Shown here piece after piece: positions 1 through 29,495 of a stretch of DNA of 64,000 bases; position 1 is the stretch's first letter; each line of letters starts with the position of its first letter. The DNA is from an uncultured candidate division Zixibacteria bacterium. GTDB taxonomy: Bacteria; Zixibacteria; MSB-5A5; UBA10806. A model generated the notes under the pieces. It was not told the origin of the DNA and ran no database searches. It saw only the letters and a program-made list of their open reading frames with translations. The position numbers were made by a program, and so were the translations under genes. Location of the stretch: the NCBI GenBank assembly GCA_963817915.1, contig CAWFQL010000003.1, forward strand, positions 96,001 through 160,000, in the 5' to 3' direction.

Positions 1-1850
1 CCTTACGATTGCTATGGATGTCATCAGACTAATTATAATATGGTCCCGGACCCAAACCACGTGCAAAATAATTTTAATCATGACTGTACGCAATGCCATA
101 ATACTTCAGCCTGGACACCGGCATCATATGATCATAGCCAAACAAGATTCCCGTTGACCGGTGCCCATGTTGGACAGACATGTGTTGCCTGTCATGCCAA
201 TGGCTATAATAACACGCCATTTGACTGCTTTAGCTGCCACACAGGTAATTATAATTCGGCTACTGATCCCAACCATGTGACCAATAATTTTGACCATGAC
301 TGTACGCGATGTCATACATACTAGGTCTGGTCGCCTTCGACATTCAGCCATGGCTCGACAAGATTCCCGTTAACCGGCGCGCATGTTCCTCTTCAATGTA
401 TTTCTTGTCACGCCAACGGATATCAGAATACACCGTTGGATTGCTACAGTTGCCATGTGGGCAATTATAATTCGGTTACCGACCCCAACCATGTGACCAA
501 TAATTTCGACCATGATTGTACCCAGTGTCATACGACATCGGTCTGGAATCCATCGACATTTAATCACAGCTCGACCAGGTTCCCCTTAACTGGCGCGCAC
601 AATACGCTGCAATGCATTTCGTGTCATGCCAACGGATACCAGAATACGCCGTTGGATTGTTACAGTTGCCATGTCGGTAATTATAATTCCGTTCCGGATC
701 CTAATCACGTTACCAATAATTTCAGCCATGATTGCACTCAATGCCATACAACTGCGGGCTGGACTCCGGCGAATTACAATCATAGTCAAACGAGATTTCC
801 GTTAACTGGGGCGCATGTAAATCTTGCCTGCGTGGCCTGCCATGCCAATGGCTATCAGAATACGCCGTTCGATTGCTATAGCTGCCATCAGAATAACTAC
901 AATGGCGTCGTCGATCCCAATCACAACACCAATAATTTCAGCCACGACTGCACAGTATGTCACACTACATCCGGATGGACACCTGTATCGTTCAATCACG
1001 GATTGACGCAATTCCCGTTAACCGGGGCGCATGTAAATCTTGCCTGTGTTGCTTGTCACGCCAATGGATACCAAAATACGCCTATGGATTGCTATAGCTG
1101 TCACCAGAGCAATTATAATGGTGTTACGGATCCTAATCATGTCACCAATAATTTCAGCCATGACTGTACTATCTGTCATACGACCACAGCCTGGAATCCT
1201 TCGACATTCAATCACGGGCAAACCCAATTCCCGTTAACCGGCGCGCATGTGAGTCTTGCCTGCATATCCTGTCACGCCAATGGGTACCAAAATACGCCTA
1301 TGGATTGCTATAGCTGTCATCAGGGCAATTATAACGGTGTTACGGATCCTAATCATGTCACCAATAATTTCAGTCACGACTGCACCGTATGTCATACTAC
1401 TTCAGCCTGGACTGCCCGCGACATTTAATCATGGCACGACCAGATTCCCGTTGACCGGTGCGCATGTAAGCCTGGCCTGTATAGCCTGCCATGCCAATGG
1501 CTATCAGAATACGCCTTTCGATTGCTATAGTTGTCATCAAAGCAATTTCAATGGTGTCGTAGATCCAAACCACGTCACCAATAATTTCAGCCATGACTGC
1601 ACCGTATGTCATTCTACTTCGGCTTGGTCGCCGGCGTCATTCAACCATAATCAAACACAGTTCCCATTGACCGGAGCGCATACTACACTGCAATGTGTCG
1701 CCTGCCACGCCAATGGATACCAAAATACCCCGACTGCTTGTGTCAGCTGCCATCAGGCCGATTATAATGGCGCCACAAATCCGAATCATACCGCTCAGGG
1801 ATTTCCCACGCAATGCCAGCAGTGTCATACAACCGCTAATTGGACGCAAT
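1..1850 (+). repeat. Intragenic tandem repeat, 216-bp period, about 8.5 copies in the window
   Basis: Equivalent Cys codons start at 10, 226, 442, 658, 874, 1090, 1306, 1523 and 1739. The period is 216 except one 217 interval that contains the frameshift. Confidence 0.95.
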
Positions 1851-2083
1851 TAACTTATAACCATAATACTCAATATTTCCCAATTACTACCGGAAGGCAT
1901 GCTACCGTTTGGTCAACCTGTGCTACCTGCCATAATATTCCTGGAAATCTTGCGCATTTCGAATGTATCCTCTGCCATGAGCACAACCGCTCTGACACAG
2001 ATTCACAGCATCAGGGTAGGTCGGGTTATCAATATCTAAGCACTGCGTGCTACGCTTGCCATCCCAGAGGCAATGCCGGTTAG
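1..2083 (+). CDS. Giant multiheme c-type cytochrome built from 72-aa three-heme tandem repeats (5' truncated; in-frame TAG at 322-324 and +1 frameshift near 1412, probably sequence errors)
   Basis: Frame +1 is open from base 1 (PYDCYGCH...). It continues in the same frame past TAG 322-324 into ORF 436..1428, then into the frame of ORF 1256..2083. I count 29 CxxCH motifs. The FPLTGAH, DPNH and F/YxH motifs recur in every unit. Confidence 0.93.
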
Positions 2084-2092
2084 GTGTAGTAT

Positions 2093-2896
2093 ATGTCTGG
2101 CATGCGTATAATACTCATTATGGCAATTAGCCTTGCCACGGGAGTTCCCTGCTATTCACAGGAGAATCCTCATCGAGACTCCAAGCTCGATTGCCAGGAA
2201 TGTCATACCGCTTCAAGTTGGACCGATATCAAGTTTGATCATCAGAAGACCGGTTTTGTGCTCGATGGAAATCATTTGGAGGTTCCCTGCGTCTCATGTC
2301 ATTCATTGGTTGATTTCAATATAGTTTCAAAGGAGTGTGTTTTTTGTCATGTTGATATTCATCAGGGGAAATTGGCCCGTACTTGCGAACAGTGCCATTC
2401 GACAAGGGGATGGAATATTTTCAATACAACAAGAGCGCATGCGAATACGACATTCCCTCTGATTGGCGCGCACGCAAAGCTCGATTGCCGTTCCTGCCAT
2501 CTAAGCGAAATTGAAGGAGAGTATTCATTGCTTAAATCGGAATGTATATCTTGCCACGAGGCCGACTTTAATAATGCCCAAAATCCGTCCCATTCGGCAT
2601 TGGGATTCGGGACTCGCTGCAATGATTGCCATACGCTTTTATCCTGGCGCCCCGCCGATTTTTCACAGCATAATTCGTATTTTCCTATATATAGCGGGGC
2701 ACATGCCGGAAAATGGCGGAGTTGTTATGATTGTCATCCGACTCCGGGTGATTACGGAATCAGTACCATGACCTGTTTTTCCTGCCATGTTCATGACCAA
2801 GGGTCGACAGATTCTCGGCACCAAGAGGTCGCAGGATACGTTTATCAAAGCAGCGCCTGCTATAATTGTCATTCAAGCGGAAGCGCTGGAGGCTGA
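2093..2896 (+). CDS. Secreted decaheme c-type cytochrome, paralog of the upstream giant cytochrome
   Basis: N-terminal signal peptide, 10 CxxCH motifs and FDH..TGF.L.G.H / FPLIGAH motifs. Its C-terminal five-heme segment aligns by eye with that of the upstream gene. Confidence 0.93.
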   Translation: MSGMRIILIMAISLATGVPCYSQENPHRDSKLDCQECHTASSWTDIKFDHQKTGFVLDGNHLEVPCVSCHSLVDFNIVSKECVFCHVDIHQGKLARTCEQCHSTRGWNIFNTTRAHANTTFPLIGAHAKLDCRSCHLSEIEGEYSLLKSECISCHEADFNNAQNPSHSALGFGTRCNDCHTLLSWRPADFSQHNSYFPIYSGAHAGKWRSCYDCHPTPGDYGISTMTCFSCHVHDQGSTDSRHQEVAGYVYQSSACYNCHSSGSAGG

Positions 2897-2906
2897 GAGG
2901 TCTAAT

Positions 2907-4517
2907 ATGAAGGGATTATTAGTCAAAATCCTTGCAACGATAATATTCGCGCTTATTTTCCGGGTTGGAGCGTCGGCCGCTATCCATGTCCAATATCTTT
3001 CCCAGGAAGCGGTCTATATCGATGCCGGAATCGAAGACAGCCTTTCAATCGGCGATCAACTCGAGATCAGAAAAGGCGACAGCCTTATTGCTCAATTAGA
3101 AATTATCTTCGCGTCCGAGCATTCGGCTTCCTGCAAGATACTTAATTCGACAGGTACAATCGAAATCGGGGCTACCGTAAATATCACTTCAAGGGCGATC
3201 GTGGCCAAGCCGGCCCCGGCAGATTCTGTTGCGGATACGACTGCGAAAAAACTTGAGCCTGCGCCAATTGCAGTTGCGCCAAAGCCTAAGAAAAATTCTA
3301 CCCATTTCAGCGGGACTATTGCCTTGCAGACTTATAATTGGAACGATATCACTTCATCGAATCTTGATTTCTCCCAGCCGTCGGCGAGAATAAATATTAC
3401 CGCCCTGAAACTCTGGGGCACCGAGCTTTCATTTACGCTAAGATCGACCATCCGCAATGAACGAAGGACCCGCAGCTATAGCAGCTCTGTTCCCAAAAGC
3501 GAATGGCGCAATAGGGTATACCAACTTTCAATAGGGTATTCGGATGACAACGGGCCATTCGGGTTTGAATTCGGCAGAATAATCTCGAATAAAATCAGCG
3601 GTATCGGATATATAGATGGAATCCTTGTCCATCGCAGGGTGAGCAAATTGGTCAATATGGGAGTATTTGTAGGGACTCAACCCCAATGGCAATATTCCGA
3701 TTTTCAAACTTCGATCCAGAAATACGGATTTTATACTAATTACGCGCGAGGCGAATATGCCAAATCTCGTTATGAAGTGACCCTGGCGGCCGCGGGCGAA
3801 TATCATAGCAATATCGTCAGCCGTGAATTCATTTATCTTCAGAATAATCTCATTATTAAGGGCGATTGGAATATTTTTCAGAGCGCGGAATTGGATCTTA
3901 ATCGCGGATGGCGTAAAGAAAAATCGAAAATAGGCACATCTCTAACTAACTTCTACCTTTCCACCAGGAAACGAGTTACTGGCTGGCTTTCGGCGAGCCT
4001 GAGCTTTGATTCCCGTAAAAACTATTGGACCTATGAAATTCGTTCGATGGCCGAGCAGCTTTTCGATAGCAATGTCCGGCGCGGAGGCAGAGCGGATATT
4101 TCGCTGAGACTGCCTGGCAATTTCCAGCTTCTCGCGGGATTTGGCTTGCGGAAACGGGCCACGGAATCGGGCTCTACCTATTCTTATTCTGGGGCATTGA
4201 ATAAATCCAATATCCTCAATTCAAAGCTGGACATAAATATTCAGATGTCGGGATTTACCAACCCGCTTACAAACGGGTATAATGTATCCACGACTCTCGG
4301 TCGCTATTTCGGCAGGGGGAACTACCTGAGTATTGGATACAGCGGATACGTATATTCGATCCAAAATGGCGGTCCAACCCGCAGTAATACCGCATATCAG
4401 CTAAGCTCAATGATAAGCATTATCAGATCCGTATATTTTTCCGGTCAATATGAATACGACACTGGGGATGATACCAAAGGCCATCGAATAGTAGCGGAAC
4501 TCGGTTATCGTTTCTAA
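2907..4517 (+). CDS. Outer-membrane beta-barrel protein (putative porin of a porin-cytochrome conduit) with an N-terminal soluble domain and Pro/Ala/Lys linker
   Basis: ATG 2907 follows GAGAGG. Signal peptide MKGLLVKILATIIFALIFRVGASAA, alternating amphipathic strands, and C-terminal ELGYRF Bam-type signature. Starts 10 bp after the decaheme gene. Confidence 0.8.
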   Translation: MKGLLVKILATIIFALIFRVGASAAIHVQYLSQEAVYIDAGIEDSLSIGDQLEIRKGDSLIAQLEIIFASEHSASCKILNSTGTIEIGATVNITSRAIVAKPAPADSVADTTAKKLEPAPIAVAPKPKKNSTHFSGTIALQTYNWNDITSSNLDFSQPSARINITALKLWGTELSFTLRSTIRNERRTRSYSSSVPKSEWRNRVYQLSIGYSDDNGPFGFEFGRIISNKISGIGYIDGILVHRRVSKLVNMGVFVGTQPQWQYSDFQTSIQKYGFYTNYARGEYAKSRYEVTLAAAGEYHSNIVSREFIYLQNNLIIKGDWNIFQSAELDLNRGWRKEKSKIGTSLTNFYLSTRKRVTGWLSASLSFDSRKNYWTYEIRSMAEQLFDSNVRRGGRADISLRLPGNFQLLAGFGLRKRATESGSTYSYSGALNKSNILNSKLDINIQMSGFTNPLTNGYNVSTTLGRYFGRGNYLSIGYSGYVYSIQNGGPTRSNTAYQLSSMISIIRSVYFSGQYEYDTGDDTKGHRIVAELGYRF

Positions 4518-5968: not shown

Positions 5969-8900
5969 TTACTTCAACAATAACATCTTGTTGGTTTTGG
6001 TGAAATTAGCGGTTTCGATTTTGTAGAAATAAAGCCCGGTCGCGACTTTTCGGCCCGATTCATCCTTGCCATCCCAAACAACCTGCTTATAGCCGGCAGC
6101 CTGTCTTTGATCCACAAGGTTTTTCACCTTCTGACCCATAATATTGAATACTACAATTCTCACTTCGGAATCGACCGCGAGCCCATAAGAAATCGTGGTT
6201 GAAGGATTGAATGGGTTCGGATAGTTTTGCGATAGGAAGAACTTCTTCGGAGCGGTGATATCATCGTTCAACCCTGTGATTGTCAGCGCCTTTCCAGAGC
6301 CGGCGGTTGATCCGAATGATTCGGCGGTTAGATTTCCTTCGGAGAATAGAGCGCTAACGTAATACCAATAAAGATTAGTATCGGCAAGATCAATATCCGA
6401 ATAGCTCGTTGCCTGAATCGGAGAATCGTTCAGCTTCGAAAAATCACCATTGGGCCAACGGCTTCTGTAAATATTAAATCCGGCGAGATTAGGATTCGTT
6501 AATGTATCCCAGCGAACCTCGATTAAATTAGAAATATTGTTCGATGCTGAAAGACTGGATGGTATCGGGCATCGAGTGAGATGTAATGTCTCCGTCTCGA
6601 TAAGCTGGTTGGCTACCACCTGGATACTTTCCTGATAGGCAGGGTAATATCCAAGGGCTTCGGCGGTGAGGCTTATTGTTCCGGGCGGTACTTCTTTAAT
6701 AAAGAACCTGCCATCGCTGGCTGAAATTCTCCTTTGACCTGTGCTCGCATGAATTTGAGCGTCGCCATTCTGGCCGCTTCCATCAAGATCGACACTTCCC
6801 CTTACTGAGCCGCGTCCGGTACTGGTGGTAATCAGCGTGACTGCGCCGTCAATCAAGGTCGCTCCTCCCGGAGCGTAATAATTGTCGTGCGTAAATTCCA
6901 GCCCGCGTTGTTCATCGTAGCTCTCGAATCCTACGGACGCGTAACCCTCTCCAGAGTCGGTGTTATTAACATCTCTGTAAATAAAAAGGATATCGGAATC
7001 GCCTGTAAGGCTCGGATAATAGGCTGGATCCATAATAACCATCTGGAATGTTTCGTACTGGAAGGTATTCGTATTGGTTAATTTCAACCACTCTATATAA
7101 AATTTATGGTTCACCGAATCATACCATTTGTAAACACCTAAGTGCGTTCCGTCAATTCTGAGATCATCCCAGAACGGCGAAATCTGTCCGCGCGCGTTAC
7201 CCGGGTCAGGAATTGGCCAATTGAAGAAGTTGGCCCAGTAATTTCCCTGCATATCCATTGGAGTAGTATCCAACGCTGCGAAACCATTGATACAAACTAT
7301 CATCGCCCCGTAATCTTGGCCATAATACTTCATGTTGAATGGCAATGTCACGAGAACCGATTTGTCATCCAACTCGGATCCATAATTCAAACGAGTACCC
7401 TGCCCGCCGCTATCCGGGCTGATTTCAACCCATTGATAAGTCGGCATCATTGCGTATGCGCTGTCCATACGATCATACATGTAATAGCCATAGGAATCCG
7501 GCCCAACCGGGTCCCTTGACGAAATTCGTCCAACTGTTAGTGTAAATGGAATCGATGACTTTGAACCCGAAAGGGTTGATATATGAAGAGTCAGATTTAA
7601 TTTTTTGCCCTTAAAGGCAGTCGAATCGCATGTGATACTGACGAGAGAACTGGAATTGTCGCCGGAGCCGCCGATTGAAATATCACCGAAATTGGCAATT
7701 GATCCAACGGCATTCGCATAATCATCATCGGTTGTCACAATACCGGTAACACCCTGGGCATTAAGCGATCCGCTATTGGATAAAAATATCTTGAGATTGG
7801 CTGTTTGACCCGGACCGATAAGGCTGTCACCCTCGGGGATTATAGCTCTGGTGACTGCGAATTTTGGAGCCTTTACCGGGAATTCGATCATAGTTTGCCA
7901 GCTGTCATTATTTTGGTCTCTGATTGTCAATTTCTGCCTGACAGTTTGACCATCGGAAGCGGCGGGATTTACATATACCACAAATGGCGCTTCTGATGCT
8001 CTCGATTCGCCCGGCGCCAGATTGCCGTAATTGCGAATACCGTCATAGACAACAGAATTCCCATCGGTTGATTCCAACTGCGCGGATACATTCGTAGCTG
8101 AAATATCCGTACCGAAATTCTTGATTGAGACATTTAATTCGATTGTCTCGCCAGGCGCGGCTAAATGATCGCCGTCTCCGTGAGAAAAGCCGTCGGTATC
8201 ATCATCGATATAAATGGAGTCCAATCCTACTGCCAGATCGGATGTCGCTATTTCCACATTGGTTTGGTAAGGAATAAGATTTTGTCCGGAAACGGTAAGC
8301 TTCATTGAGCCGGGAGTATTGGCGTCAAATATTAGCGTGACATTTCCCGATTCATCGGTTTTATCGACACTGAATACTTCTTCGGTTGTCCCAATAGTTT
8401 TGATCAATGTCACATATGCGCCTGAAATCGCGTTGCCCGCTGAATCTATCACTGAAGCATTAAAGCTGTTTGTTCCCAGTGCCACAGTATCGAGATGTGT
8501 AACGTTTATGCTTATTGGAATTTTAGTGCGTAATTCAAGTTCAGGATCGCCCAGCATATTATATGTATTGAAATATTGTTGTATCATTCCTCCCGGGGCG
8601 GTCTGTCTTGGGAATGTCCAGTAATCCTGAAGCTTTCCTCTCACTGCCGCGGCGGCAAAATGATAGACATTCTCTTCAAATATCCCGAAGAAATAGCCGA
8701 CCATAATGGGGTTATTCCATCTGGTATGGGTGTCGTGATCGGAAACCCCATAAAACGCCGGTCCGCCTTTCAAGCTATCAGGACTACGTCCCATTCTAAT
8801 CCAGGTCTCGCCAAAACATTCACCGCCGAAATCACCGGTGCCGCAAGTCAATGGAGACAGAACGCCAAGTTTTTGATTGTCCTGTAAATTGAGCAAATCG

Positions 8901-10285
8901 TAACTCGTCATCGATGGGCCGGCCCAGCCGTCAGTTCCTCCAGCCCCGCGATATTGAATAAAACCGATTCCAGCGTTGAAAAGAGAAGGCAGCCTCCAGC
9001 CGGAATCGAATACGGTGTCAACTCGGACAAAACCATGCCTGAGCTGAAGCTGACGGACCCAGAGAGTAGTCAATCTTGACGATTCATAATACACATAAGC
9101 CACCGAGAGCCCTCTGATCCAATGCTCCGGATCGCGCATGAGCGGATACTTTTCATACTTGAGAATCTTTGAAAGTGCCACTCTGGCCTGGGACATAGAG
9201 TCTACCGACATGCGAGCGATAAAGATATCCGGGATATAATCCGAACCATCTACGCACGCGTATTTATTATCGGACGCGTAAATGTTGCTTCCGACAATAT
9301 AGGGATAATCCGGCACGACAAACATATGATCGCGATCACCGACTATCATAACATACTCCGGAGGAATCTCCCAGGAAGCGTAAGCTGTGTCAAGAAAGGC
9401 CTTTATCTGTTCCTTACTTGGAGACCCGGTTGGTCTAATTTCGGTTGTAGGAACAATTCTGACCGGATACCCCTTTTGATGCTTCCATTGAGCCACTGCT
9501 TTTACAGTATCAACCAGTGTCGGTCTGCATATTATAACGTATCCCCCGCGCTTAACTTCAACATTATCCATTGCCTGGTCGAAATTGGCGAACATAGCCT
9601 TATAAATTGGATAAAATCCCTCGGATAGATATCTATGATGGACTGTCTTGGGATTGATTACTTCGCCATCATAGCTGATATCAACAGAAATGTCCCGGTA
9701 TACGCGCAATACCTTTTGAACAGGATTATACTGCGCCGGATAGAGTGCAATCCGCACAAAACGAACATCGCGCATAATCTGCGGATCGGAAGCCTCCGCA
9801 AGATTGCCGGGATAAAACGCATCTCTTGCGTAAGTCTGCAGGTCAATTGTGAATGGTACGGCTGACGCACCGGGAGTTTCCGAAGGGGATGGCTGAACCG
9901 GGGCAAGTTCGATATTCGGCAAATCATCATAACCGGAATATGTGACTGTCAATCTTACTCCTGCCTGGTCGGGGATGATTATGTTGGCTGTCAACGCTGG
10001 AAGATCGGGCTTACCATCTTCAGCCAATTCGCTTGGCGTAATAAATTCGCCAACCGGCAGGTCAAGTTTCTTATAATTGCTGCCGCCAAGAGAAATATCG
10101 TTTAGTGCCACAGCCGGCAAATTCAAATTCAACGAGGTTTTGGAACCCAAGTTCCTCACCTCTAATTTCGACGATTCCGCCGAAATATCTGATAGAACGC
10201 GGATGTTTTGAGAGGATAATGACTGCGAAATCATTAAAAACAGCAGAAACACAGTCAAGATGCACGCTTTAGCCTTGATACTCAT
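5969..10285 (-). CDS. Large secreted C25 (gingipain-like) peptidase-family protein with propeptide, Ig/FN3-like domains and C-terminal FlgD/T9SS-type sorting domain
   Basis: ATG 10285 with GGAGG SD and a signal peptide. Motifs WKHQKG, YVMIVGD, DYIPDIFIARMS and YNMLGDPEL. C-terminus LSQNYPNPFNPSTTISY...WDGKD...GLYFYK. Confidence 0.88.
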   Translation of the reverse strand: MSIKAKACILTVFLLFLMISQSLSSQNIRVLSDISAESSKLEVRNLGSKTSLNLNLPAVALNDISLGGSNYKKLDLPVGEFITPSELAEDGKPDLPALTANIIIPDQAGVRLTVTYSGYDDLPNIELAPVQPSPSETPGASAVPFTIDLQTYARDAFYPGNLAEASDPQIMRDVRFVRIALYPAQYNPVQKVLRVYRDISVDISYDGEVINPKTVHHRYLSEGFYPIYKAMFANFDQAMDNVEVKRGGYVIICRPTLVDTVKAVAQWKHQKGYPVRIVPTTEIRPTGSPSKEQIKAFLDTAYASWEIPPEYVMIVGDRDHMFVVPDYPYIVGSNIYASDNKYACVDGSDYIPDIFIARMSVDSMSQARVALSKILKYEKYPLMRDPEHWIRGLSVAYVYYESSRLTTLWVRQLQLRHGFVRVDTVFDSGWRLPSLFNAGIGFIQYRGAGGTDGWAGPSMTSYDLLNLQDNQKLGVLSPLTCGTGDFGGECFGETWIRMGRSPDSLKGGPAFYGVSDHDTHTRWNNPIMVGYFFGIFEENVYHFAAAAVRGKLQDYWTFPRQTAPGGMIQQYFNTYNMLGDPELELRTKIPISINVTHLDTVALGTNSFNASVIDSAGNAISGAYVTLIKTIGTTEEVFSVDKTDESGNVTLIFDANTPGSMKLTVSGQNLIPYQTNVEIATSDLAVGLDSIYIDDDTDGFSHGDGDHLAAPGETIELNVSIKNFGTDISATNVSAQLESTDGNSVVYDGIRNYGNLAPGESRASEAPFVVYVNPAASDGQTVRQKLTIRDQNNDSWQTMIEFPVKAPKFAVTRAIIPEGDSLIGPGQTANLKIFLSNSGSLNAQGVTGIVTTDDDYANAVGSIANFGDISIGGSGDNSSSLVSITCDSTAFKGKKLNLTLHISTLSGSKSSIPFTLTVGRISSRDPVGPDSYGYYMYDRMDSAYAMMPTYQWVEISPDSGGQGTRLNYGSELDDKSVLVTLPFNMKYYGQDYGAMIVCINGFAALDTTPMDMQGNYWANFFNWPIPDPGNARGQISPFWDDLRIDGTHLGVYKWYDSVNHKFYIEWLKLTNTNTFQYETFQMVIMDPAYYPSLTGDSDILFIYRDVNNTDSGEGYASVGFESYDEQRGLEFTHDNYYAPGGATLIDGAVTLITTSTGRGSVRGSVDLDGSGQNGDAQIHASTGQRRISASDGRFFIKEVPPGTISLTAEALGYYPAYQESIQVVANQLIETETLHLTRCPIPSSLSASNNISNLIEVRWDTLTNPNLAGFNIYRSRWPNGDFSKLNDSPIQATSYSDIDLADTNLYWYYVSALFSEGNLTAESFGSTAGSGKALTITGLNDDITAPKKFFLSQNYPNPFNPSTTISYGLAVDSEVRIVVFNIMGQKVKNLVDQRQAAGYKQVVWDGKDESGRKVATGLYFYKIETANFTKTNKMLLLK

Positions 10286-10658
10286 TTGACCTCCACTAAG
10301 CCTTAAAAAAATAAACATAAACATATCCCATAATTTTAGGCGAGAATATCCCCCCAGCGATTTCTCGTTTACCAATGGATTAAACAACTTAATCCGCTTG
10401 GCTCGTTCCACTAATATAATCGATAATTTTTTACTTAGTAAATTATGTCATTGAAATTTTGATTTAAATTGGGAAATTCTCAAAATTTGCAACCCCATTT
10501 TTGAGACTATTATTGAGTGGGCCGCCCACGTTAACCTGATGAATATTTTGCGGTTATGGAAATTATTGGCGGTTCATTTAATGCGGTGATAATTATACGA
10601 AATAGAAATGGGGCGAATAATGTTCGCCCCGAATTACTCCGACTATTGAAAAATCAGA

Positions 10659-15608: not shown

Positions 15609-16019
15609 ATGTCTAACGGAGGCGCAATTGCCGCGTCGACCGCGGCCGGGATTGCCGCTGAACTGATGCGGCAAGAGGAGGAAGAAATGACCGCTTATGA
15701 TAAAGATGATCTTGATGGATGGGAATTTAAGATAATCCGTTCCAATACCGGTAAATTCAAAAAAAGTGAAGCGATCAAAACACTGTGTCAGGAAGAATCA
15801 AAGGCCGGGTGGGAGATGGTCGAAAAATTCGACGATAACCGTATCCGTTTCAAACGGCGAATCGAGAATCGCAACCGCGACGCGCAATCGCAGATTGATC
15901 CTTATCGCACTCGCGTCGGAATTGGCGATGCCAAGCTGGCATTTGTAATCATCGCGTCTATTGCCGCGGCTGTTGGAATTGTGGCGCTCTTAGCTGTTAC
16001 CCTCGGCAATAAAAACTAA
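15609..16019 (+). CDS. Hypothetical protein with a C-terminal TM helix (DUF4177-like WEFK...GWEMV)
   Basis: GGAGG SD, ORF with a hydrophobic C-terminus. Confidence 0.65.
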   Translation: MSNGGAIAASTAAGIAAELMRQEEEEMTAYDKDDLDGWEFKIIRSNTGKFKKSEAIKTLCQEESKAGWEMVEKFDDNRIRFKRRIENRNRDAQSQIDPYRTRVGIGDAKLAFVIIASIAAAVGIVALLAVTLGNKN

Positions 16020-16043: not shown

Positions 16044-16073
16044 AAAAAAAAGAGGCCGAAAAGTTCGGCCTCT
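16044..16073 (-). terminator. Intrinsic terminator of the OmcS-like gene
   Basis: AGAGGCCGAA-AAG-TTCGGCCTCT hairpin with an A8 run on the plus strand (U tract on the minus strand). Confidence 0.8.
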
Positions 16074-16100
16074 CATTCTATCTATCTAATAAATCAATAT

Positions 16101-17219
16101 CTACTGTGCGGTGTTGACAACATTATCATGGCATTGACGGCATCCGGCTGTTCTCATTTCCTCTGAGTTGTCCGCTGGATTCCATCTCATACCAAATGCG
16201 TTGGTGGAGCCGTGCGCCTGATGGCACGAGAGGCAAAAGACCTCGTTATTATAAGCTACCTGGGATGCTGCATTGAAATCATGCGCTTCCCTGACCAGGA
16301 ATGGCATACGTCCAACTGAAAATTCCGAGCCCTGACCATTATACCAATTTGTACTATCGGCTGTGTAAACCGGATCGCCGGGTAAGCCGCTAATCGGGCG
16401 ATATGCGCCATATTCGGTATTCGAGACTGGATGGCGGTTCCAATGGAAATCGAGATCGGGGTTTGTATATCGTCCACCATTTGTACCAGCATCCAATAAT
16501 GTGTGATGGCAATCGATACAGATATTGGTTACCTCACGCCAGGTTGGTTCGCCACCTGCATCGCCGGGCTCGCCGTACTTTACATTATCCTGCTGATATT
16601 TCTGAAGGCCTGTCGCGCCGGGATTCACAAATGCGACAATCGGAGGCTCGCCGCCGGGCCATGATGCCCATTGCAGATTGCGATAATAACCGGTGCCGTG
16701 AGGAGCATGACAATCAACGCAATCAACAGTTGCGGTCCTGAATTCTCCTCCAAAATGACATCTCAGACAAAGGTCGCCTGGAGCAGTCCCAATATTATGG
16801 CCATTGTCGTTGATAGCGCCGGGATCGCCGAATTGTCCCGCGGCCCGAAGGGTGCCGCCGTTGACATCGGAGCCCACAACGTCAGGGACATTAACTTTGT
16901 CTTGATGACAATTAAGACACAATGCCAACGCGCTCGTGGCTTTCAAAAGCTTGTTTGTCGGCGGTTCCATGACAAATGGATAAGTGAAGGGGTCCTGATA
17001 GCCATAATTATGCTGCATCGAGCCATGCATGACATGGCAATCGGAACAGACCAGGTCGGCGCCATTATGATAGCCGGGCGAAAATGGCGGCGTATCGAGA
17101 AGCATCCCGGGATTATGTCCGCCGCTTCCGGGTCTATGAATATCAATACCGTCCATCGGTCCGCCCGCCAACGCTACGGCGCTGACCAGGAAGAAAACAA
17201 CTGTGATGAGTTTACCCAT
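16101..17219 (-). CDS. Secreted OmcS-like multiheme cytochrome c with 7 CxxCH motifs
   Basis: AAGGAAGG SD and signal peptide ending AVALA. Motifs YHNG..VCSDCHVMHGS, LCLNCHQ, GHNI, CLRCH, CVDCHAPHG..YR, CIDCH...RHP, VFCLSCHQAHGS and GCRQCH. Confidence 0.88.
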   Translation of the reverse strand: MGKLITVVFFLVSAVALAGGPMDGIDIHRPGSGGHNPGMLLDTPPFSPGYHNGADLVCSDCHVMHGSMQHNYGYQDPFTYPFVMEPPTNKLLKATSALALCLNCHQDKVNVPDVVGSDVNGGTLRAAGQFGDPGAINDNGHNIGTAPGDLCLRCHFGGEFRTATVDCVDCHAPHGTGYYRNLQWASWPGGEPPIVAFVNPGATGLQKYQQDNVKYGEPGDAGGEPTWREVTNICIDCHHTLLDAGTNGGRYTNPDLDFHWNRHPVSNTEYGAYRPISGLPGDPVYTADSTNWYNGQGSEFSVGRMPFLVREAHDFNAASQVAYNNEVFCLSCHQAHGSTNAFGMRWNPADNSEEMRTAGCRQCHDNVVNTAQ

Positions 17220-17357
17220 ACCCATACCTTCCTTATCCGGAAATTTATTGGAAAAGAAATCCTTATTCTTCAACCAATTAATTATCATTATCTTTTCCCC
17301 ATCAAATACATGCTATCAAAAAAGCCGCAATATCCTAAGCTTGCCCTTTTGCCCCGT

Positions 17358-17420: not shown

Positions 17421-17448
17421 AATTTACCGCCAATTTAATCCATGTCAA
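17421..17448 (-). promoter_or_regulatory. Putative sigma70 promoter for the OmcS-like gene
   Basis: Minus strand TTGACA-N16-TAAATT. Confidence 0.5.
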
Positions 17449-17632: not shown

Positions 17633-17994
17633 CTAATTAACAGACAGGCATTTGAAAACCTGTTCGCTGGTGCCATCCTCAAATGATATTTTCCCTTCCA
17701 TAATCGTCTTGATGCTATCCACCGAAATCATTTCAGGGTTGTAGCTAAAGATGGCCTTATGCTCAGTCGCGAAAGTCTCAATACCATAAATACCCGGAAT
17801 GCTATCGTATAATGATGAAAAGAAGGTTGCTGTGCCTTTGCATTTGAGCCCTTCAACCACAAATATGGTTTTGGCCCCGGCCTTCGCGTCAAATGTCTTA
17901 TTAGTTGTAGGCTGAACAAATGCGGTTTGAGATGATACCCGCCGACTAAAGCGGAAATTACGAAAATCGGTATTATTATTTTTGGAATTTCCAT
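17633..17994 (-). CDS. Membrane-anchored or exported heavy-metal-associated (HMA-like) domain protein; frameshift near 17927
   Basis: The hydrophobic N-terminus of ORF 17728..17994 joins the frame of ORF 17633 (TAFVQP...FVVEGLKCKGTA...YNPEMIS) if one A is added to an A3 run. Confidence 0.7.
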
Positions 17995-18003
17995 ATCTAC
18001 TCC

Positions 18004-18777
18004 TTATAAGATTGCCCGAAGTTTCAAGACGTCCTTTTCTTTGCAGGAATCCATGCATTCGAGGCAATTGGTGCAATCCTTGTGTCTTATGACCTGGTGT
18101 TGATGAACTGGAATATCGTGAATGCAAGCTTGAGAGCATTTCCCGCATGATGTACAACTGGAATTGTCTCGCGTGATTTTTACCAGTCCGAGCCTGCTGA
18201 AGGGATCGAATATCGCTCCCATGGGGCAGAGATAACGGCAAAATGCCATCGGGATAACAAAAACCCCGACCACAATAACGCCCGTGACTAAAATTGAAAT
18301 CAATCCGGCGCTGCCGTGTCCAAAGCCGGAGAATATCAGGTAAAAGGGATCGTATCCCCGCAAGACCAATTCGCCTGTCTTGTAAGTAAAATATAGCGCG
18401 AATATCAGAACAGGATAACGGATGAATTTCAGAGCGGAATCGATTTTGCGATTTATCCGGGGCCGCTTTTTCCAGGTGACTCCACCCAGCCTTCCAAGCA
18501 ATTCGCTCAAAAACCCAATCGGACAAGCCCAGCCGCAAAATGATTTTTTGACAATCAAAACAAGCGCGAGCATTGCCAGCATCAGCGAAAGATTGAGAGG
18601 TCCGAGGGCGCAGGAAAATTCACCAGCCTTAATGAGTCCCCAAAGGCTTTCCGCTCCCCCGAAGGGACAGTAATCCTCAAAGGATCGGCTTCCAAAGCCC
18701 AGCGCCAAATAGATAACTATCCCTAATATCAATGTCATTAAGGTGTAGCGAATGTATCTGCTCTTGATCGAAGTCAT
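18004..18777 (-). CDS. NapH/MauN-like membrane polyferredoxin (4Fe-4S binding membrane protein)
   Basis: TM helices with CPFGG, FCGWACPIG, FCRYLCPMG, CTSCGKCSQAC and CTNCLECMDSC. Confidence 0.88.
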   Translation of the reverse strand: MTSIKSRYIRYTLMTLILGIVIYLALGFGSRSFEDYCPFGGAESLWGLIKAGEFSCALGPLNLSLMLAMLALVLIVKKSFCGWACPIGFLSELLGRLGGVTWKKRPRINRKIDSALKFIRYPVLIFALYFTYKTGELVLRGYDPFYLIFSGFGHGSAGLISILVTGVIVVGVFVIPMAFCRYLCPMGAIFDPFSRLGLVKITRDNSSCTSCGKCSQACIHDIPVHQHQVIRHKDCTNCLECMDSCKEKDVLKLRAIL

Positions 18778-18960
18778 CAAATTATCCCCTTATTAAGTTG
18801 CCGGCCTCCGCACCTTTTTGAATTCCGCAAAGCGGAAAATTATTTCAACGTATATGTGTTATGGATGTTCCATAAGGGTGGAAAATAATACTATCAATTC
18901 CCACCCGACAGCAGGGTAGCTTGGTGAAGTTAGATTTTTCGCGACGCGAAGAAATCGAAT

Positions 18961-20371: not shown

Positions 20372-21599
20372 TTATGCCGCCACTAACGAAACACAGTCCC
20401 AAACAGGGCATACCTGAACACAAAGCGAGCATCCTGTGCATTTCTGCTTGTCGACTTTCGGAATCCTGTCCGCGCCGGATGATATCGCCTGATAGCCGGC
20501 GTCGCGGCAAGAGACCACGCAGCGATCGCATTTTACGCAGGCTGATTCGTTGATCGATGAGACCAATCGCTTTTTTCGTTCGAGCCCTATATGGTCGGTT
20601 AGTTTCGGCAATGATTTTCCAACAAAATCCTTTATCGTTCCGAAGTCATGGTCTTCCATGAATCCGGAAAGCCCTTCTTTCAATTCATCGATAATCCCGA
20701 AACCGCGAAACATGACCGCCGTGCAGATTTGTAACGACGATGCTCCCAGCAGAATAAATTCCGCGGCATCGCTCCAGGTCTCGATTCCCGCCGATACCCG
20801 AAATAGGTACATGCAATTCCGAGGCTATATTAGCCACCGCCTTCAACGCGATCGGCTTGATGGCCGGACCGGAATATCCGCCGTGAGTACTCTTGCCGAA
20901 GACATTCGGGTAGGGAGTCAATGTTTCCAAATCGATACCCGTGATAACGGCTACAGTATTAATCGCCGAAATTGCATCGGCGCCGCCATCGACAGCCGCG
21001 CGAGCCGGGACTCGGATATCGGTTATATTGGGTGTCATCTTGGCAATCACCGGAATCGTGCAGGCCTGCTTTACCCATGATGTCGCCGTCTTGACGATTT
21101 CCGGATTCTGTCCGATAGCGGCCCCCATCCCTTTTTCGGGCATTCCATGGGGACATGAGAAATTGAGCTCCAGCATATCTGCTCCAGCCGCCTGGCACAT
21201 CCTAGCCAACTCCTGCCAGCCGGTCTTGTCTTTGCCGCCCGCCATGATACTGGCGATTAGCAGATGCTTGGGATAGCTTTTCTTGATATCCTCGATCTCT
21301 TTCAGCCAGATATTCAACGGCCTATCGGTTATCAATTCGATATTTTGAAGGCCATACAGCTTTTTGGCCTCATCGCTTTTTCCGGGGAACGACAGCGATG
21401 CCAGCCGCGGAGTGACATTGGCCATGAGATCGCGGTCATGCCCCAATGTCTTAGTGACCGCCCCGCCCCATCCGGCCTCGAACGCTCTTTTGATCATCTC
21501 GCCCGTTCCGGTCGGCGGCGCGGATGATAGCATGAACGGGTTCATCATTTCGAAGCCGCAGAAATTGGTTTTGAGATCTATCTTTTTTGCGATTCTCAT
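20372..21599 (-). CDS. preA: Dihydropyrimidine dehydrogenase subunit PreA; frameshift near 20788
   Basis: NPFMLSSAPPT, NIELITDR, ELNFSCPHGM and GGYSGPAIKPIAL. The C-terminal 2x[4Fe-4S] motifs are in the second frame. Confidence 0.92.
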
Positions 21600-25144: not shown

Positions 25145-26607
25145 TTAAAACCAGCGAGAGATAATTACTCTCTTGTCTGTATAGAATTCGACTCCATCTC
25201 GTCCGTACGCTTTCAGGTCGCCGAAGAATGATCTCTTGGTGCCGCCAAACATGAAGAACGCCATAGGCGCGGCAATACCGATATTGACTCCGATCATTGA
25301 AATCCCGGCCTCGTATTTGAATTTGCGGACATCTTTGCCGCTCGATGTGAATATCGCGGTCGCGTTGCCATACTCATTTTCATTAATCAGCTTCAATGCT
25401 TCATCGATATTTTTGACCGGCATCAGGCATGCCACCGGGCCAAATATCTCCTCGCGGGCGATTGTCATTTTGGTGGTAACATTGTCGAAAATTGTTGGGC
25501 CCACGAAATGTCCCTTGAGGTCGCCTTCAACTTTCGGCGTACGGCCATCGAGGACAAGATCCGCGCCCTCTTTGATTCCCTTTTCGATATATGAAAGAAC
25601 TCGTTCTTTGTGCTTTTGCGAGATAACCGGACCTAAGCCGATTGATTCATCGAGGCCATTGCCGATCTTGAGCTTCTTTGCGGCTTCGGCCAGCTTCTTC
25701 TTGAATGGCTCATGCACATCGCCGACTGTCAATATGACGCTGGCGGCCAGGCATCGTTCGCCGGCGCAGCCGTAGATAGAATCTATCAATGTCGCCACCG
25801 TCTTATCGAGATCGCAATCGGGCATGACAACCACGAAATTCTTGGCGCCGCCGAGAGCCTGGACTCGTTTGCCCTTGGCGGATGATTCGCGATAGACCGA
25901 TTCGGCTATCTTCGATGAGCCCACGAACGATATACCGACAACATCGGGATTGTTGATCAACGCTCTGGCGACTTCGCCATCGCCATTGACAAGATTAATC
26001 ACTCCCGGCGGGAATTTGGCCTCATCGATCAATTCGAATATTTTCTTCTGCGAAAGCGGTGTCTGTTCGGATGGTTTTACGACGAATGTATTTCCGCAAG
26101 CAACCGCCATTGGGAAAAACCATAACGGCACCATCGCTGGGAAATTGAATGGCGTTATACAGGCGAATACTCCCATCGGCTGACGGACTACATCGCAATC
26201 GATGCCGGGGGCGATATCTTCGAGATTGACTCCCTGCATCTGGGTCGGTATTCCGCAGGCGGCTTCGACATTCTCGATACCGCGTCGTCACCGAGCCGCG
26301 CGATTCGGCTATGGCCTTGCCGTTTTCTTTTGTCAAGTATTCGGGAAATCTCCTCGAAATCCCGTTCGAGCAAATCTCTCAGTTTAAAGAGATACCGCGC
26401 CCTTACGACTGCGGGCGTCAGGCGCCATTCCCTGAACGCTTTCTTGGCCGCCTTGACAGCGTCATCGACTTCGTCTTTGGTCGAAAATTTGACAATGCCT
26501 ATCTTTTCGAGGGTAGCGGGATTTATAATTTCCTGGTTATCGGATGGCGACGACTCTATCCATTTACCATTAATGTAATTTGAAGCAAAATTGAAATCAG
26601 GTTTCAT
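25145..26607 (-). CDS. mmsA: CoA-acylating (methyl)malonate-semialdehyde dehydrogenase; frameshifts near 26336 and 26289
   Basis: ITPFNFPAMVPLW, KPSEQTP, GGAKN, GCAGERCLA and EEIFGPV. The N-terminus is spread over two other frames. GGAGG SD. Confidence 0.9.
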
Positions 26608-26758
26608 TGGGCCTCCATGCGCCAGAGGGTGAATACTATAATTCAATGCAAAACGGATATTACGAAATAATATCCCCCAAACCAAATGATTTTTAAGAAT
26701 TTAGCAATTATGCCCAATGAGAAATGTAATTAGTCCGAATCCATCTTGCGAGATTAAA

Positions 26759-27040: not shown

Positions 27041-29495
27041 ATGCCACTCGAATCTGAGAAAATACTACCAGTCTATATCGAAGATGAAATGAAATCTTCC
27101 TATATCGACTACTCCATGTCGGTCATCACCAACCGCGCTTTGCCTGATGTCCGCGATGGTTTGAAGCCGTCCAATCGGCGCATCATGGTCGCTATGAACG
27201 ATCTCAATCTAGCGCCCAATCGTCCCCACAGGAAATGCGCCAAGATCGCGGGCGATACGTCGGGCAACTACCATCCCCATGGCGAACAGGTTGTCTATCC
27301 GACATTGGTGAGAATGGCGCAGGATTTCAATATGCGCTACCTGCTGGTCGATGGCCAGGGCAACTTCGGCTCTATCGATGGTGACTCGGCGGCGGCGATG
27401 AGGTACACCGAGGCCCGTCTGACCCCGATGTCGATGGAGATGATTACCGATCTCGAAAAAAATACCGTCAATATGATCCCCAACTACGACGAGACCCGCG
27501 AAGAGCCAACTGTACTACCGTCGAAATTCCCGAATCTGATTTGCAATGGCTCATCCGGTATCGCGGTCGGTATGGCGACCAATATCCCCCCCCATAATCT
27601 AACTGAGGCTGTCGAGGCGCTATGCGCGCTGATCGATACTCCCGAAATGTCTGTCATGGATGTCCTGAATTATATTAAGGGCCCGGATTTTCCGACCGGC
27701 GGATTGATTTTCGGTATTTCCGGTATGAAGCAAGGATATTTGACCGGCCGGGGTAGATTTTATGTCAGAGCCAGGGCCAATGTCGAGGTCCAGAAGAACG
27801 GCCGCGAAAGCATTATTGTCAGTGAAATCCCATATCAGATCAATAAATCGAATCTTCTGGAAAAGATCGCCGAATTAGTGCGCGATAAGCGGCTTGAAGG
27901 TATTTCCGACCTGCGCGATGAATCCGATCGCGACGGTATGAGGATCGTAATCGAGCTCAAGAAAGATATCCAGGCTGATATAGTTTTGAATCAGCTTTTC
28001 AAGCTTACCCAAATGCAAGCGACATTCGGAATGATTACCCTGGCGTTGGTCAAGGGTCAGCCGCGTGTTTTGAATATCAAAGAGCTTCTACAGAATTTCA
28101 TAGACCATCGCCATGAAGTGGTCGAACGGCGCACCCGTTTCGATCTAGCCGAGGCCGAGAAGCGCGCTCATATACTCGAAGGTTACAAAATCGCATTAGA
28201 TAATCTCGATGCCGTTATTGCTCTTATCAGAAAATCGAAAGACCCGGCCGAGGCCAAAGATTGGCCTTGTAACCAGATTCAAACTATCCGAAATCCAGGC
28301 CCAGGCGATTCTGGATCTCCGTTTGCAGAGACTAACCGGCCTCGAACGCGATAAGATTATCGAAGAATACGAAGCCACCATAAAGTTAATCGCCGAGCTC
28401 AATGAGATACTAGCGTCCAAACAGCGCCGTATGCAGATTATCAAAGACGAACTCAATGATATGAAAGAAAAATTCGGCGATGCCCGCCGTTCGGTGATAA
28501 TTGAAGAAGATATCGATGATGATTTCACAATTGAAGATTTAATCGCCGAAGAGGATATGATAGTCACGATCTCCCATGCGGGGTATATCAAACGGCTTTC
28601 AATATCTGCTTACAAGAAGCAATCGCGCGGCACCAAGGGCGTTATCGGCATGGAAACAAAGGAAGAGGATTTCGTGGAGCATATGTTTGTGGCATCCACT
28701 CATAACTATATCCTTTTCTTCACTCGCCGCGGCAAATGCTACTGGTTGAAAGTCCACGAGATTCCACAGGGCGGAAGGCTCGCCAAGGGAAAAGCGATTA
28801 TCAATTTAATAGGCATTGATAAGGATGACACTATTACCGCCTTCGTGCCAGTCAAAAATTTCGAAGCCGGCGGATTTATAACGCTGGCCACTCAAACCGG
28901 ACAGATCAAGAAGACCGAGCTTTCCGCATTCTCCAACCCCCGCCGCGATGGCATTATCGCGGTCACACTGCCCGAAGACGATTTCTTGATCGGCGCGGAG
29001 CTTTCCGATGGCAATTGCGATATAATCCTGGCCACTCGCCGGGGACAGGCGATAAGATTCCCCGAAAACACTGTCCGGGCCATGGGCCGAACCGCTTACG
29101 GAGTTCGAGGCATAACTCTCGAAGAAGGCGACTATGCTATCGGTATGGTTGTTGTCAAGAGGGAGTCAACCTTGCTGACAGTCTGCGAAAATGGCCACGG
29201 GAAAAGATCCGATATCGCCGATTACCGAATAACCAATAGAGGCGGCAAAGGGGTTATCAATATCAGAGTGTCCGAGCGAAATGGTGAAGTAGTCGCTGTC
29301 AAAGAAGTTGTCGATGACGACGAGCTTCTCTTAATCACCCAACGAGGCATAGTCAATCGTCTTGCGATCAGTTCGATCCGTTCCATAAGCAGGGCAACCC
29401 AGGGAGTCCGCCTGATGGGCCTCGATTCCGGCGATAAGGTAATCGATGTTGCCCGTGTACCGGCCGGCGAGAAATTGGGCGATAACGGCGAATAA
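27041..29495 (+). CDS. gyrA: DNA gyrase subunit A; frameshift near 28257
   Basis: [17 protein letters not shown], catalytic AAMRYTE, GyrA-box-like QSRGTKG and C-terminal pinwheel repeats. An extra A in GCCAAAGATT splits the ORF. Confidence 0.96.

Follow-up and report, generated by a model that had tools for sequence, protein, structure and literature searches.

The question raised by this locus is whether a seven-heme cytochrome of an uncultured candidate division Zixibacteria bacterium belongs with the nanowire cytochrome OmcS and, if so, what its additional heme would mean for its role. The gene lies on the minus strand of the window (the entire 64,000 nt stretch of contig CAWFQL010000003.1 that was analysed), and was proposed in an initial annotation to encode a polymerising OmcS homologue with an inserted seventh heme motif. 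The reference for all comparisons was OmcS, the hexaheme filament-forming cytochrome of Geobacter sulfurreducens (GSU2504; PDB 6EF8/6NEF).

The ORF spans 16101..17288 (-), of which 16101..17219 (-) was taken as the intact gene, encoding a protein of 372 aa designated P0001. The ATG at 17219 was selected as the start codon because a ribosome-binding site (AAGGAAGG) is located 7 nt upstream and because homologues, which exhibit 97–100% length coverage and up to 73% identity, begin at the same point. In current annotation libraries, P0001 is named by generic heme motifs only, and its relatives are labelled hypothetical. The gene and the N-terminal region of its product comprise the following features:

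16101..17219, minus strand: coding sequence of the heptaheme OmcS-superfamily cytochrome P0001, 372 aa plus stop
17227..17234, minus strand: ribosome-binding site AAGGAAGG, 7 nt upstream of ATG 17219, read from the sequence
17421..17448, minus strand: promoter-like TTGACA-16-TAAATT, ~200 nt upstream of the start, 10/12 consensus matches
16050..16074, minus strand: intrinsic-terminator-like hairpin with T-run, 11 pairs of which 6 GC, 27 nt past the stop
17166..17219, minus strand: signal peptide, residues 1–18, read from the translation, its hydrophobic N-terminus being aligned in all family members
17073..17165, minus strand: clade-specific N-terminal extension, residues 19–49, with a semi-conserved His28 and AlphaFold pLDDT <50

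Promoter-like sites were called by consensus match only, with seven found versus 3.5 expected. The hairpin is bidirectional and common to the heptaheme gene and the convergent gene at 15609–16019. Signal peptide cleavage is predicted after ALA, placing the mature start at Gly19 according to the AxA rule, and no lipobox cysteine is present. A search of sequencing runs for the gene returned no RNA run and a single DNA run, in which a fraction of 0.07 of the words sampled occurred.

When P0001 was compared with the PDB as a single sequence using phmmer, no match was obtained at E≤10. A profile of a 45-sequence family alignment (A1), searched against 177,635 distinct PDB sequences, identified OmcS (6ef8) as the top match (E=3.2e-7) across four colinear stretches. 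An alignment of 87 six-heme relatives (A2) was used as a bridge to OmcS; its profile matched OmcS residues 1–355 with an E value of 5.1e-26, and the seven-heme and six-heme alignments were matched by hhalign over 291 columns (probability 100, E=1.5e-69). Structural comparison with VIA-align superimposed residues 50–367 of the AlphaFold model on residues 1–407 of the OmcS chain (Z 9.2, rmsd 4.5 Å, 242 residues), and among 48,161 chains OmcS alone reached Z≥5, with Z≥2 observed only for OmcS, MtrA and OmcE. Foldseek reported OmcS at E=0.034 (TM 0.44/0.41) and nothing at E≤0.001. The model itself is heme-free, with a pLDDT of 70.2 overall and <60 in the N-terminal third that holds His65. Profile, profile–profile and full-length fold comparisons agree with the OmcS homology that had been proposed for this gene, a relationship that is real but remote, and weak at the single-sequence level. 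P0001 is almost certainly a heptaheme electron-transfer cytochrome of the OmcS superfamily.

P0001 and OmcS have in common their full-length fold, with six heme motifs and the six distal histidines arranged in the same order, as well as the N-terminal xH and CxxCHxMH histidine, secretion and a low secondary-structure content. P0001 is 35 residues shorter, however, with 27% identity over structure-aligned positions, and differs in its heme number from the group formed by OmcS, OmcT, OmcJ and GSU2501, which is characterized by exactly six. OmcE, a tetraheme filament cytochrome of Geobacter (232 aa; PDB 7TFS), matched the N-terminal two-heme region of P0001 in the profile search (E=1.7e-5), with a weak fold match (Z 2.6).

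Seven CxxCH motifs are present in P0001, at residues 58, 101, 151, 167, 234, 329 and 360, and their correspondence to OmcS and to the six-heme relatives is as follows:

17025..17069, minus strand: YH (His51), heme 1 CSDCH (residues 58–62) and His65 of CxxCHxMH, aligned to OmcS residues 1–16
16905..16919, minus strand: heme 2 CLNCH (residues 101–105), aligned to OmcS CLNCH and found in 87/87 six-heme relatives
16755..16769, minus strand: heme 3 CLRCH (residues 151–155), the extra, clade-specific site, aligned with a loop of OmcS that bears no heme and with a gap in the profile of the six-heme relatives
16707..16721, minus strand: heme 4 CVDCH (residues 167–171), followed by His174, equivalent to OmcS heme 3, aligned to CSSCHDPHG and found in 87/87 six-heme relatives
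16503..16520, minus strand: heme 5 CIDCH (residues 234–238) plus His239, equivalent to OmcS heme 4
16221..16235, minus strand: heme 6 CLSCH (residues 329–333), equivalent to OmcS heme 5 and aligned to OmcS CLSCHRAH
16128..16142, minus strand: heme 7 CRQCH (residues 360–364), corresponding to heme 6 at the C-terminus of the six-heme relatives, found in 87/87 of these and confirmed base by base in the sequence

Both the number of motifs and the exact position of the extra CLRCH are as first annotated. The six remaining motifs align in all 87 six-heme relatives, and of the distal histidines five are present in each of these relatives and His263 in 85 of them. His51 and His65 are invariant in the family (45/45) and among the six-heme relatives (87/87), so that the CxxCHxMH histidine is indeed retained, as had been supposed. 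The 45-sequence family alignment contains 14 invariant histidines for seven hemes and neither a CxxCK nor any other open-site motif. P0001 was thus found to retain the order of CxxCH motifs and additional histidines, six of each, that is conserved in the OmcS superfamily, with one motif and one histidine added. These six heme sites and six distal histidines were shown to be those of OmcS and its six-heme relatives, whereas the seventh site (Cys151/Cys154/His155) and His239, the latter invariant in 45/45 family members and found in 0/87 six-heme relatives, were shown to be clade-specific. Relative to OmcS, the seventh motif occupies the loop that precedes heme 3 of OmcS, and the heme-4 motif of OmcS is replaced by CxxCHH. 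Several of the motif-by-motif matches to OmcS that the initial annotation had given (YH..CxxCHxMH, LL..CLNCH, GHN, CxxCHxPHG and CLSCHxAH) were reproduced in the computed alignments; for the RHP block and the terminal CxxCH, the comparison was with the six-heme relatives only.

Seven CxxCH motifs including the extra site were observed in all 113 full-length close homologues, and the extra CLRCH in none of the 87 six-heme relatives. The seven-heme proteins form a monophyletic clade: a single bipartition with a support of 100 sets them apart, and its branch is the longest internal one in the tree (0.83, compared with a median of 0.11). The loop from the GHN histidine to the next CxxCH comprises 25 residues in P0001 versus 29 in OmcS, so that the loop of P0001 bears a heme motif without having been lengthened. 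The term 'inserted' is therefore misleading: the extra motif is real, but it represents a fixed trait of the whole clade, accompanied by the clade-specific His239. The nearest relatives of P0001 are encoded by Zixibacteria metagenome-assembled genomes (MAGs; 65–71% identity), in agreement with the non-Geobacter origin that had been suggested, and seven-heme loci were identified in MAGs of Zixibacteria, Ignavibacteria, Eisenbacteria, Gemmatimonadota, Planctomycetota, Armatimonadota and Acidobacteriota, the clade being conserved across phyla at 40–50% identity. No seven-heme OmcS branch was described in the literature searched; Shen et al. 2025 and Wang et al. 2019 fell outside this search and may bear on novelty.

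A second clade-wide trait concerns the N-terminus. Mature OmcS and the six-heme relatives start at xH, whereas in P0001 ~31 residues separate the predicted signal cleavage site from Tyr50-His51, and the mature N-terminus of the seven-heme proteins does not coincide with this heme-ligand motif. The N-terminal extension of ~30 residues, to which the initial annotation had also referred, is reflected in a median of 57 residues before the YH motif in seven-heme proteins (n=100) versus 25 in six-heme relatives (n=67), and a histidine is located 10–45 residues upstream of YH in 90 of 100 seven-heme proteins. That an xH start defines wire-forming cytochromes is an assumption.

To place the gene in its genomic context, neighbourhoods were derived from ORF calling with heme-rich ORFs given priority. 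A six-heme paralogue was found within 8 kb of the seven-heme gene at 33 of 71 loci and as the adjacent same-strand gene at 17 of 71, and NHL-propeller, barrel or lipoprotein genes lie beside the seven-heme gene at 27 of 71. The seven-heme gene is solitary here and in 38 of 72 loci examined, and no propeller/barrel/lipoprotein export cluster was detected at the heptaheme locus of this window. Such a cluster is present on another contig (C17) of the same genome (G000), together with two six-heme paralogues, for which tblastn gave E values of 1e-24 and 1e-17:

L075 6067–7050, contig C17: six-heme paralogue, 28% identity to P0001
L075 12555–13718, contig C17: six-heme paralogue, 28% identity to P0001

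Likewise, all five other genomes checked that have a solitary seven-heme gene hold six-heme paralogues elsewhere, and each of the six genomes examined carries one seven-heme gene versus one or two six-heme genes. The six-heme OmcS-like proteins, which occur in uncultured FCB-group and other bacteria and are often encoded by the neighbouring gene, are homologous to P0001 over the 291 aligned columns, but have no CLRCH motif, no His239 and no N-terminal extension, and fall on the opposite side of the longest internal branch. On contig C17, no seven-heme remnant follows the second of the six-heme genes, and no fusion of a seven-heme to a six-heme protein was encountered, the only longer relative being a single 762-aa protein with 32% identity. 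Fusions with 14 and 18 hemes (P0215 and P0226) consist of a six-heme domain and a different cytochrome type, the same as is encoded next to the first six-heme gene, following it, in the cluster of contig C17.

In their gene content, the clusters of the relatives and of contig C17 may be likened to the omcS-companion (osc) operon of Geobacter (Shen et al. 2025, as cited in passages of PMC13194489 and PMC12977616), as they join OmcS-like cytochromes to NHL-repeat propellers and two CsgG/LpoB-like lipoproteins, and include a protein of 510–640 aa that ends in an aromatic residue and represents a putative outer-membrane barrel. In contrast to the osc arrangement, the heptaheme gene of the window is located outside the cluster. 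A profile search with the barrel retrieved only five close relatives and reached no Geobacter Osc protein.

These observations are consistent with P0001 being a c-type cytochrome that is exported by the Sec pathway, carries seven bis-histidine hemes and belongs to a distinct, conserved seven-heme clade of the OmcS superfamily. By elimination, His239, which immediately follows the proximal heme-5 histidine, is the probable distal ligand of the extra heme, with His28 in the N-terminal extension as an alternative candidate. With His239 as its ligand, the extra heme would lie centrally in the subunit, next to hemes 4 and 5 (OmcS hemes 3 and 4), where it may provide a lateral entry or exit point for electrons. 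P0001 would act outside the cell with the six-heme paralogues and the export cluster of contig C17, most likely being incorporated into OmcS-type wires at low copy number, as a specialised subunit or adaptor. The conserved His65 would make this connection by supplying the second ligand to heme 6 in an adjoining subunit. OmcS is assembled in this way, its heme 5 receiving the second histidine from the next monomer according to a passage in PMC7096707; a passage in PMC9473688 describes that OmcE likewise takes a histidine from the adjacent subunit. His65 and the heme site Cys329-His333, the equivalents of this inter-subunit pair in OmcS, are invariant in the family alignment. A homodimer prediction (two copies of residues 20–372, A1 and four hemes) gave a score of 0.00 in both runs, which speaks neither for nor against binding. 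We consider participation of P0001 in some polymer slightly favoured, and propose only tentatively that the partner is the six-heme paralogue, which provides the best explanation but is somewhat less than an even prospect.

Other roles of P0001 were also weighed. As suggested by the initial annotation, P0001 might constitute a self-sufficient homopolymeric nanowire, assembled head-to-tail as OmcS with His65 ligating heme 6 of the next subunit and with a side heme on each subunit. The conserved full-length fold, the retention of every OmcS-type ligand including His65, the stand-alone transcription unit at this locus, together with the solitary loci elsewhere, and the conservation of the clade across phyla would all suit such a filament. 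However, six-heme paralogues accompany the gene in all six genomes examined, where a single seven-heme gene is set against one or two six-heme genes, and the N-terminal extension falls in the same part of the protein as His65, where it may affect head-to-tail packing. Most OmcS paralogues, moreover, are without known polymerisation according to a passage in PMC12977616, and a filament of P0001 alone appears unlikely.

A somewhat better, though still doubtful, prospect is that P0001 shares only its ancestry with OmcS and functions as a monomeric or dimeric carrier in the periplasm or at the cell surface, passing electrons between quinol-oxidising complexes, porin–cytochrome conduits and external acceptors. 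Other multiheme cytochromes and conduits are abundant in the genome (window 1–2893 and contig C17), the gene is unlinked to export machinery at this locus, and OmcT, OmcJ and GSU2501 are described in PMC12977616 as OmcS paralogues not known to form wires. Yet a retained OmcS fold would leave heme 6 without a ligand in cis unless the invariant His65 reaches it in trans, and seven-heme genes are embedded in the propeller/barrel/lipoprotein cluster at the 27 loci mentioned above. A catalytic role, as a multiheme enzyme akin to the nitrite, hydroxylamine or sulfite reductases, is highly improbable: the C-terminal half weakly matches NrfA-type nitrite reductases by profile (E=7e-4 to 3e-3), but these matches are limited to generic heme-packing segments, the fold search points to OmcS, MtrA and OmcE only, and this function was rejected on the basis of the 14 invariant histidines and the lack of an open-site motif.

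The identity of the seven-heme protein and that of its adjacent six-heme partner were similar when compared between genomes (medians of 55.7% and 52.5%, respectively; in 49 of 91 genome pairs the value was higher for the seven-heme protein), and such similar evolutionary rates give no sign of a special role. The clade of P0001 represents a distant relative of OmcS that is conserved in many uncultured bacteria, for which polymerisation and a side-branch heme are tentative proposals. A passage in PMC7096707 presents the capping and tapping of OmcS wire ends as an open question. As a bold and rather improbable proposal, the seven-heme clade may be the missing 'tap' or end-piece of OmcS-type wires in at least a dozen uncultured phyla, docking on or built into six-heme filaments via the inter-subunit histidine, with the extra heme (Cys151/Cys154/His155 and His239) offering a lateral way into or out of an otherwise insulated chain.

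OmcS wires serve as a model for long-range biological electron transport. An OmcS-fold protein with an extra heme and a proposed ligand of its own, always found alongside six-heme paralogues in the six genomes examined, is a candidate for a wire entry/exit or capping role. OmcS-type systems extend well beyond Desulfuromonadia, which matters for how iron and electron cycling are read from metagenomes.

The seven-heme cytochrome gene is located on the minus strand of the window, within an open frame of 395 codons (16101..17288), from which 372 residues are encoded starting at ATG 17219 (gene 16101..17219). This start is preceded, 7 nt upstream, by a ribosome-binding site (AAGGAAGG) and matches the N-termini of homologs in an alignment of 45 seven-heme family members (A1). 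The AxA rule predicts an N-terminal hydrophobic signal peptide, cleaved between ALA and GG. CxxCH occurs seven times in the protein (residues 58, 101, 151, 167, 234, 329 and 360); the third occurrence, the extra CLRCH, lies at 16755-16769, precisely the position given in the initial annotation. The following features surround the gene.

About 200 nt upstream of the gene start: promoter-like site, TTGACA-16-TAAATT
27 nt past the gene stop: strong hairpin and T-run
Flanking genes: small membrane protein, NapH-like ferredoxin, radical-SAM protein, methyltransferase

Given the promoter-like site, the terminator-like hairpin and neighbours that are unrelated and either convergent or about 400 bp away, the gene looks like a stand-alone unit in the window. 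The NapH-like Fer4_5 membrane ferredoxin (18004-18780, minus strand) overlaps an ORF of 301 codons read in a different frame (17633-18538), which had no match in a Pfam search and may either reflect a frameshift or be a distinct small gene; sequences related to the tail of this ORF occur close to the seven-heme gene of two Ignavibacteriales loci (L014 and L045).

Unlike the intact cytochrome gene, three other genes of the window appear split into two overlapping frames, i.e. gyrA (27041-28354 and 28209-29495), a DHO-dehydrogenase/ferredoxin (PreA-like) gene (20372-20812 and 20685-21599) and an aldehyde dehydrogenase gene (25145-26239 and 26188-26685). As the essential gene gyrA is among them, this points to assembly indel errors rather than real pseudogenes. 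At 1-4517 (plus strand), 12 kb from the seven-heme gene and not part of the same operon, lie successive multiheme cytochrome genes, the first with at least 5 CxxCH motifs and the next ones with 15, 9 and 10; a 576-aa protein without a Pfam match follows, and the group may constitute a porin-cytochrome conduit. The window furthermore encodes a 1480-aa protein (5969-10411, minus strand) with a C25 (gingipain-type) peptidase and propeptide, CarboxypepD_reg and C-terminal FlgD-Ig-like domains.

Standard libraries recognized only generic heme motifs in the 372-aa protein (Paired_CXXCH_1 of Pfam at 3.2e-16; doubled CXXCH domain of NCBIfam), and a single-sequence search of the PDB returned no match even at E <= 10. 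A word-indexed search identified 199 relatives at E <= 1e-3, all unnamed or annotated as 'hypothetical'. When the A1 profile was compared with 177,635 distinct PDB sequences, the top match was OmcS (6ef8; E 3.2e-7), followed by OmcE (1.7e-5). The OmcS match comprised four colinear aligned stretches, which reproduced the motif pairs given in the initial annotation. When 1.84 billion representatives were searched exhaustively with a profile, 1360 proteins scored E <= 1e-3, of which 444 reached <= 1e-10 and 99 reached <= 1e-30; among the weaker matches listed with at least 300 residues, 87 of 93 were six-heme proteins. The profile of these 87 (A2) matched OmcS residues 1-355 at E 5.1e-26 and was aligned to A1 by hhalign with probability 100 (E 1.5e-69, 291 columns), and at the profile level the homology of the seven-heme protein to OmcS is therefore regarded as solid, by transitivity.

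The AlphaFold2 model of the protein (mean pLDDT 70.2, pTM 0.72) was poor at residues 18-95, and its best Foldseek match was OmcS, at an E value of just 0.034. VIA-align superposed residues 50-367 of the model on OmcS 1-407 with Z 9.2 (rmsd 4.5 A, 242 residues aligned), and an unbiased fold scan of 48,161 representative chains gave Z >= 5 for OmcS alone and Z >= 2 for only three. Thus, the kinship with OmcS put forward by the initial annotation was borne out by profile and by structure.

All 113 full-length close homologs contain seven motifs. When six seven-heme proteins were aligned by MAFFT with the 87 six-heme relatives, motifs 1, 2, 4, 5, 6 and 7 aligned in 87/87 of the latter and motif 3 in 0/87. 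Because the loop with the extra motif measures 25 residues, compared with 29 in OmcS (A1-OmcS alignment), the motif arose inside an existing loop and not by length insertion; the seventh heme of the initial annotation is thus retained, but its description as 'inserted' is not. Exactly 14 histidines are invariant in A1, seven within motifs and seven outside (His51, 65, 141, 174, 239, 263 and 336). Six of the latter are common to the six-heme relatives (85-87 of 87), and His239, directly following the proximal His238 of heme 5, occurs in none of the 87. By elimination, His239 is the probable distal ligand of the extra heme. Since His239 adjoins the heme 5 ligand and motif 3 precedes the heme 4 motif by just 11 residues, such ligation would place the extra heme in the middle of the subunit, alongside the counterparts of OmcS hemes 3 and 4. 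The clade is further marked by an N-terminal extension of about 30 residues (median of 57 residues ahead of YH versus 25 in six-heme relatives), which contains a histidine in 90 of 100 seven-heme sequences; in the window's protein this is His28, an alternative candidate ligand. Some proteins scoring as six-heme type (in loci L002, L021, L046 and L064) carry a seventh CxxCH elsewhere in their sequence; additional hemes seem to be of multiple origin in the OmcS superfamily.

In an unrooted FastTree phylogeny of 132 sequences, with the seventh-heme columns included, seven-heme proteins formed one bipartition (support 100), and the branch that carries it, of length 0.83, is the longest of all internal branches (median 0.11). 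In a scan in which each species was represented by a single genome, relatives were located in 71 loci, all in MAGs; the nearest are three Zixibacteria loci (65-71% identity), and the others derive from Ignavibacteria, Eisenbacteria, Gemmatimonadota, Planctomycetota, Armatimonadota, Acidobacteriota, Krumholzibacteriota, Poribacteria, Nitrospinota and others. Judged by these similarities, the organism of the window is probably a Zixibacterium. ORFs were called in these loci and the window, and cytochromes were sorted by the A1 and A2 profiles.

Table. Six-heme paralogs (6H) and NHL-propeller/barrel/lipoprotein genes (NBL) in 72 loci
6H adjacent, same strand, with NBL in locus: 15/72
6H adjacent, without NBL: 2/72
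6H elsewhere in locus, with NBL: 12/72
6H elsewhere in locus, without NBL: 4/72
Seven-heme gene alone (window included; some contigs short): 38/72
No seven-heme ORF called: 1/72

The recurrent Zixibacteria order is propeller, six-heme, in some cases a cytochrome, barrel, lipoprotein, lipoprotein, propeller, six-heme and seven-heme. The window's own genome (3.33 Mb, 22 contigs, 93.9% complete) carries this cluster on another contig, C17, where it ends at the second six-heme gene.

Gene order in L075 (C17:236000-255900)
Start: 1039-aa cytochrome with 21 Pfam doubled-CXXCH stretches, HAMP-like protein, small cytochrome
Next: two NHL propellers, six-heme OmcS-like protein, 529-aa cytochrome (L075 7026-8615)
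Then: putative barrel (564-aa ORF; 510 aa as catalogued), two CsgG/LpoB-like lipoproteins
Then: NHL propeller, second six-heme OmcS-like protein
After the second six-heme gene: HmcB-like, HmcC/NrfD-like and 387-aa cytochrome genes

The HmcB/HmcC-like products correspond to quinol-oxidising subunits, and no remnant of a seven-heme gene was found after the second six-heme gene on C17. The window's copy is the sole one in its genome and shares 28% identity with the two six-heme paralogs. In five further genomes whose seven-heme gene is solitary, six-heme paralogs were likewise present elsewhere in every case, adjoined by the barrel gene in three. Both types thus co-occur in all six genomes examined, with one seven-heme copy versus one or two six-heme copies. 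A 529-aa-type gene directly follows the first six-heme gene in the own genome, L001 and L003, and in two natural fusions, P0215 (752 aa, 14 CxxCH) and P0226 (955 aa, 18 CxxCH), a six-heme domain of OmcS type is linked to another cytochrome, apparently of the 529-aa type, which hints that the two proteins may dock together. No seven-heme/six-heme fusion was observed among the proteins examined, and evolutionary rates of seven-heme proteins and their six-heme partners showed no separation. A search of sequencing runs yielded no RNA data for the gene.

These analyses reveal a secreted protein with the OmcS fold, whose histidines suffice for bis-histidine ligation of all seven heme sites; that it acts as a catalytic enzyme is considered highly improbable. 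The inter-subunit histidine of OmcS is reportedly donated by His16 (Wang et al. 2019). OmcS residue 16, the CxxCHxMH histidine, aligns with His65 of the seven-heme protein in the A1-OmcS alignment. With the fold, His65 and the heme-6 site all conserved, trans-ligation as in OmcS would be plausible. All OmcS hemes are bis-histidine ligated and heme 5 receives its second histidine from the neighbouring monomer, making ligation part of polymerisation; end capping and the electron entry and exit points of OmcS wires are described as unclear (PMC7096707, PMC9473688).

Trans-ligation would demand association of the seven-heme protein either with itself, although an autonomous homopolymer is judged improbable, or with a six-heme paralog. 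The favoured reading, tentative and put at somewhat below even chances, is that the protein serves six-heme wires as a specialised subunit or adaptor present in few copies, whose mid-subunit heme would offer lateral entry or exit. It is suggested by the presence of six-heme paralogs in every genome examined, the frequent gene adjacency, the single copy per genome and the clade-specific additions. A carrier that does not polymerise is an unlikely but tangible alternative. Wire formation is known for OmcS alone among four Geobacter paralogs, and sequence models are considered insufficient for recognising genuine nanowires in other genera (PMC12977616).

OmcS homologs have already been reported as widespread (PMC10954620), and an osc operon encoding OmcS, OmcT, OscC and proposed folding and secretion proteins has been published (Shen et al. 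2025, as cited in PMC13194489 and PMC12977616). A literature search, with Shen et al. 2025 and its supplements outside its scope, returned no branch of seven-heme proteins in which the additional motif is internal and a CxxCHH ligand is present. As a structural variant of the OmcS family, the seven-heme proteins are well supported and widely conserved, and they are candidate wire-formers.
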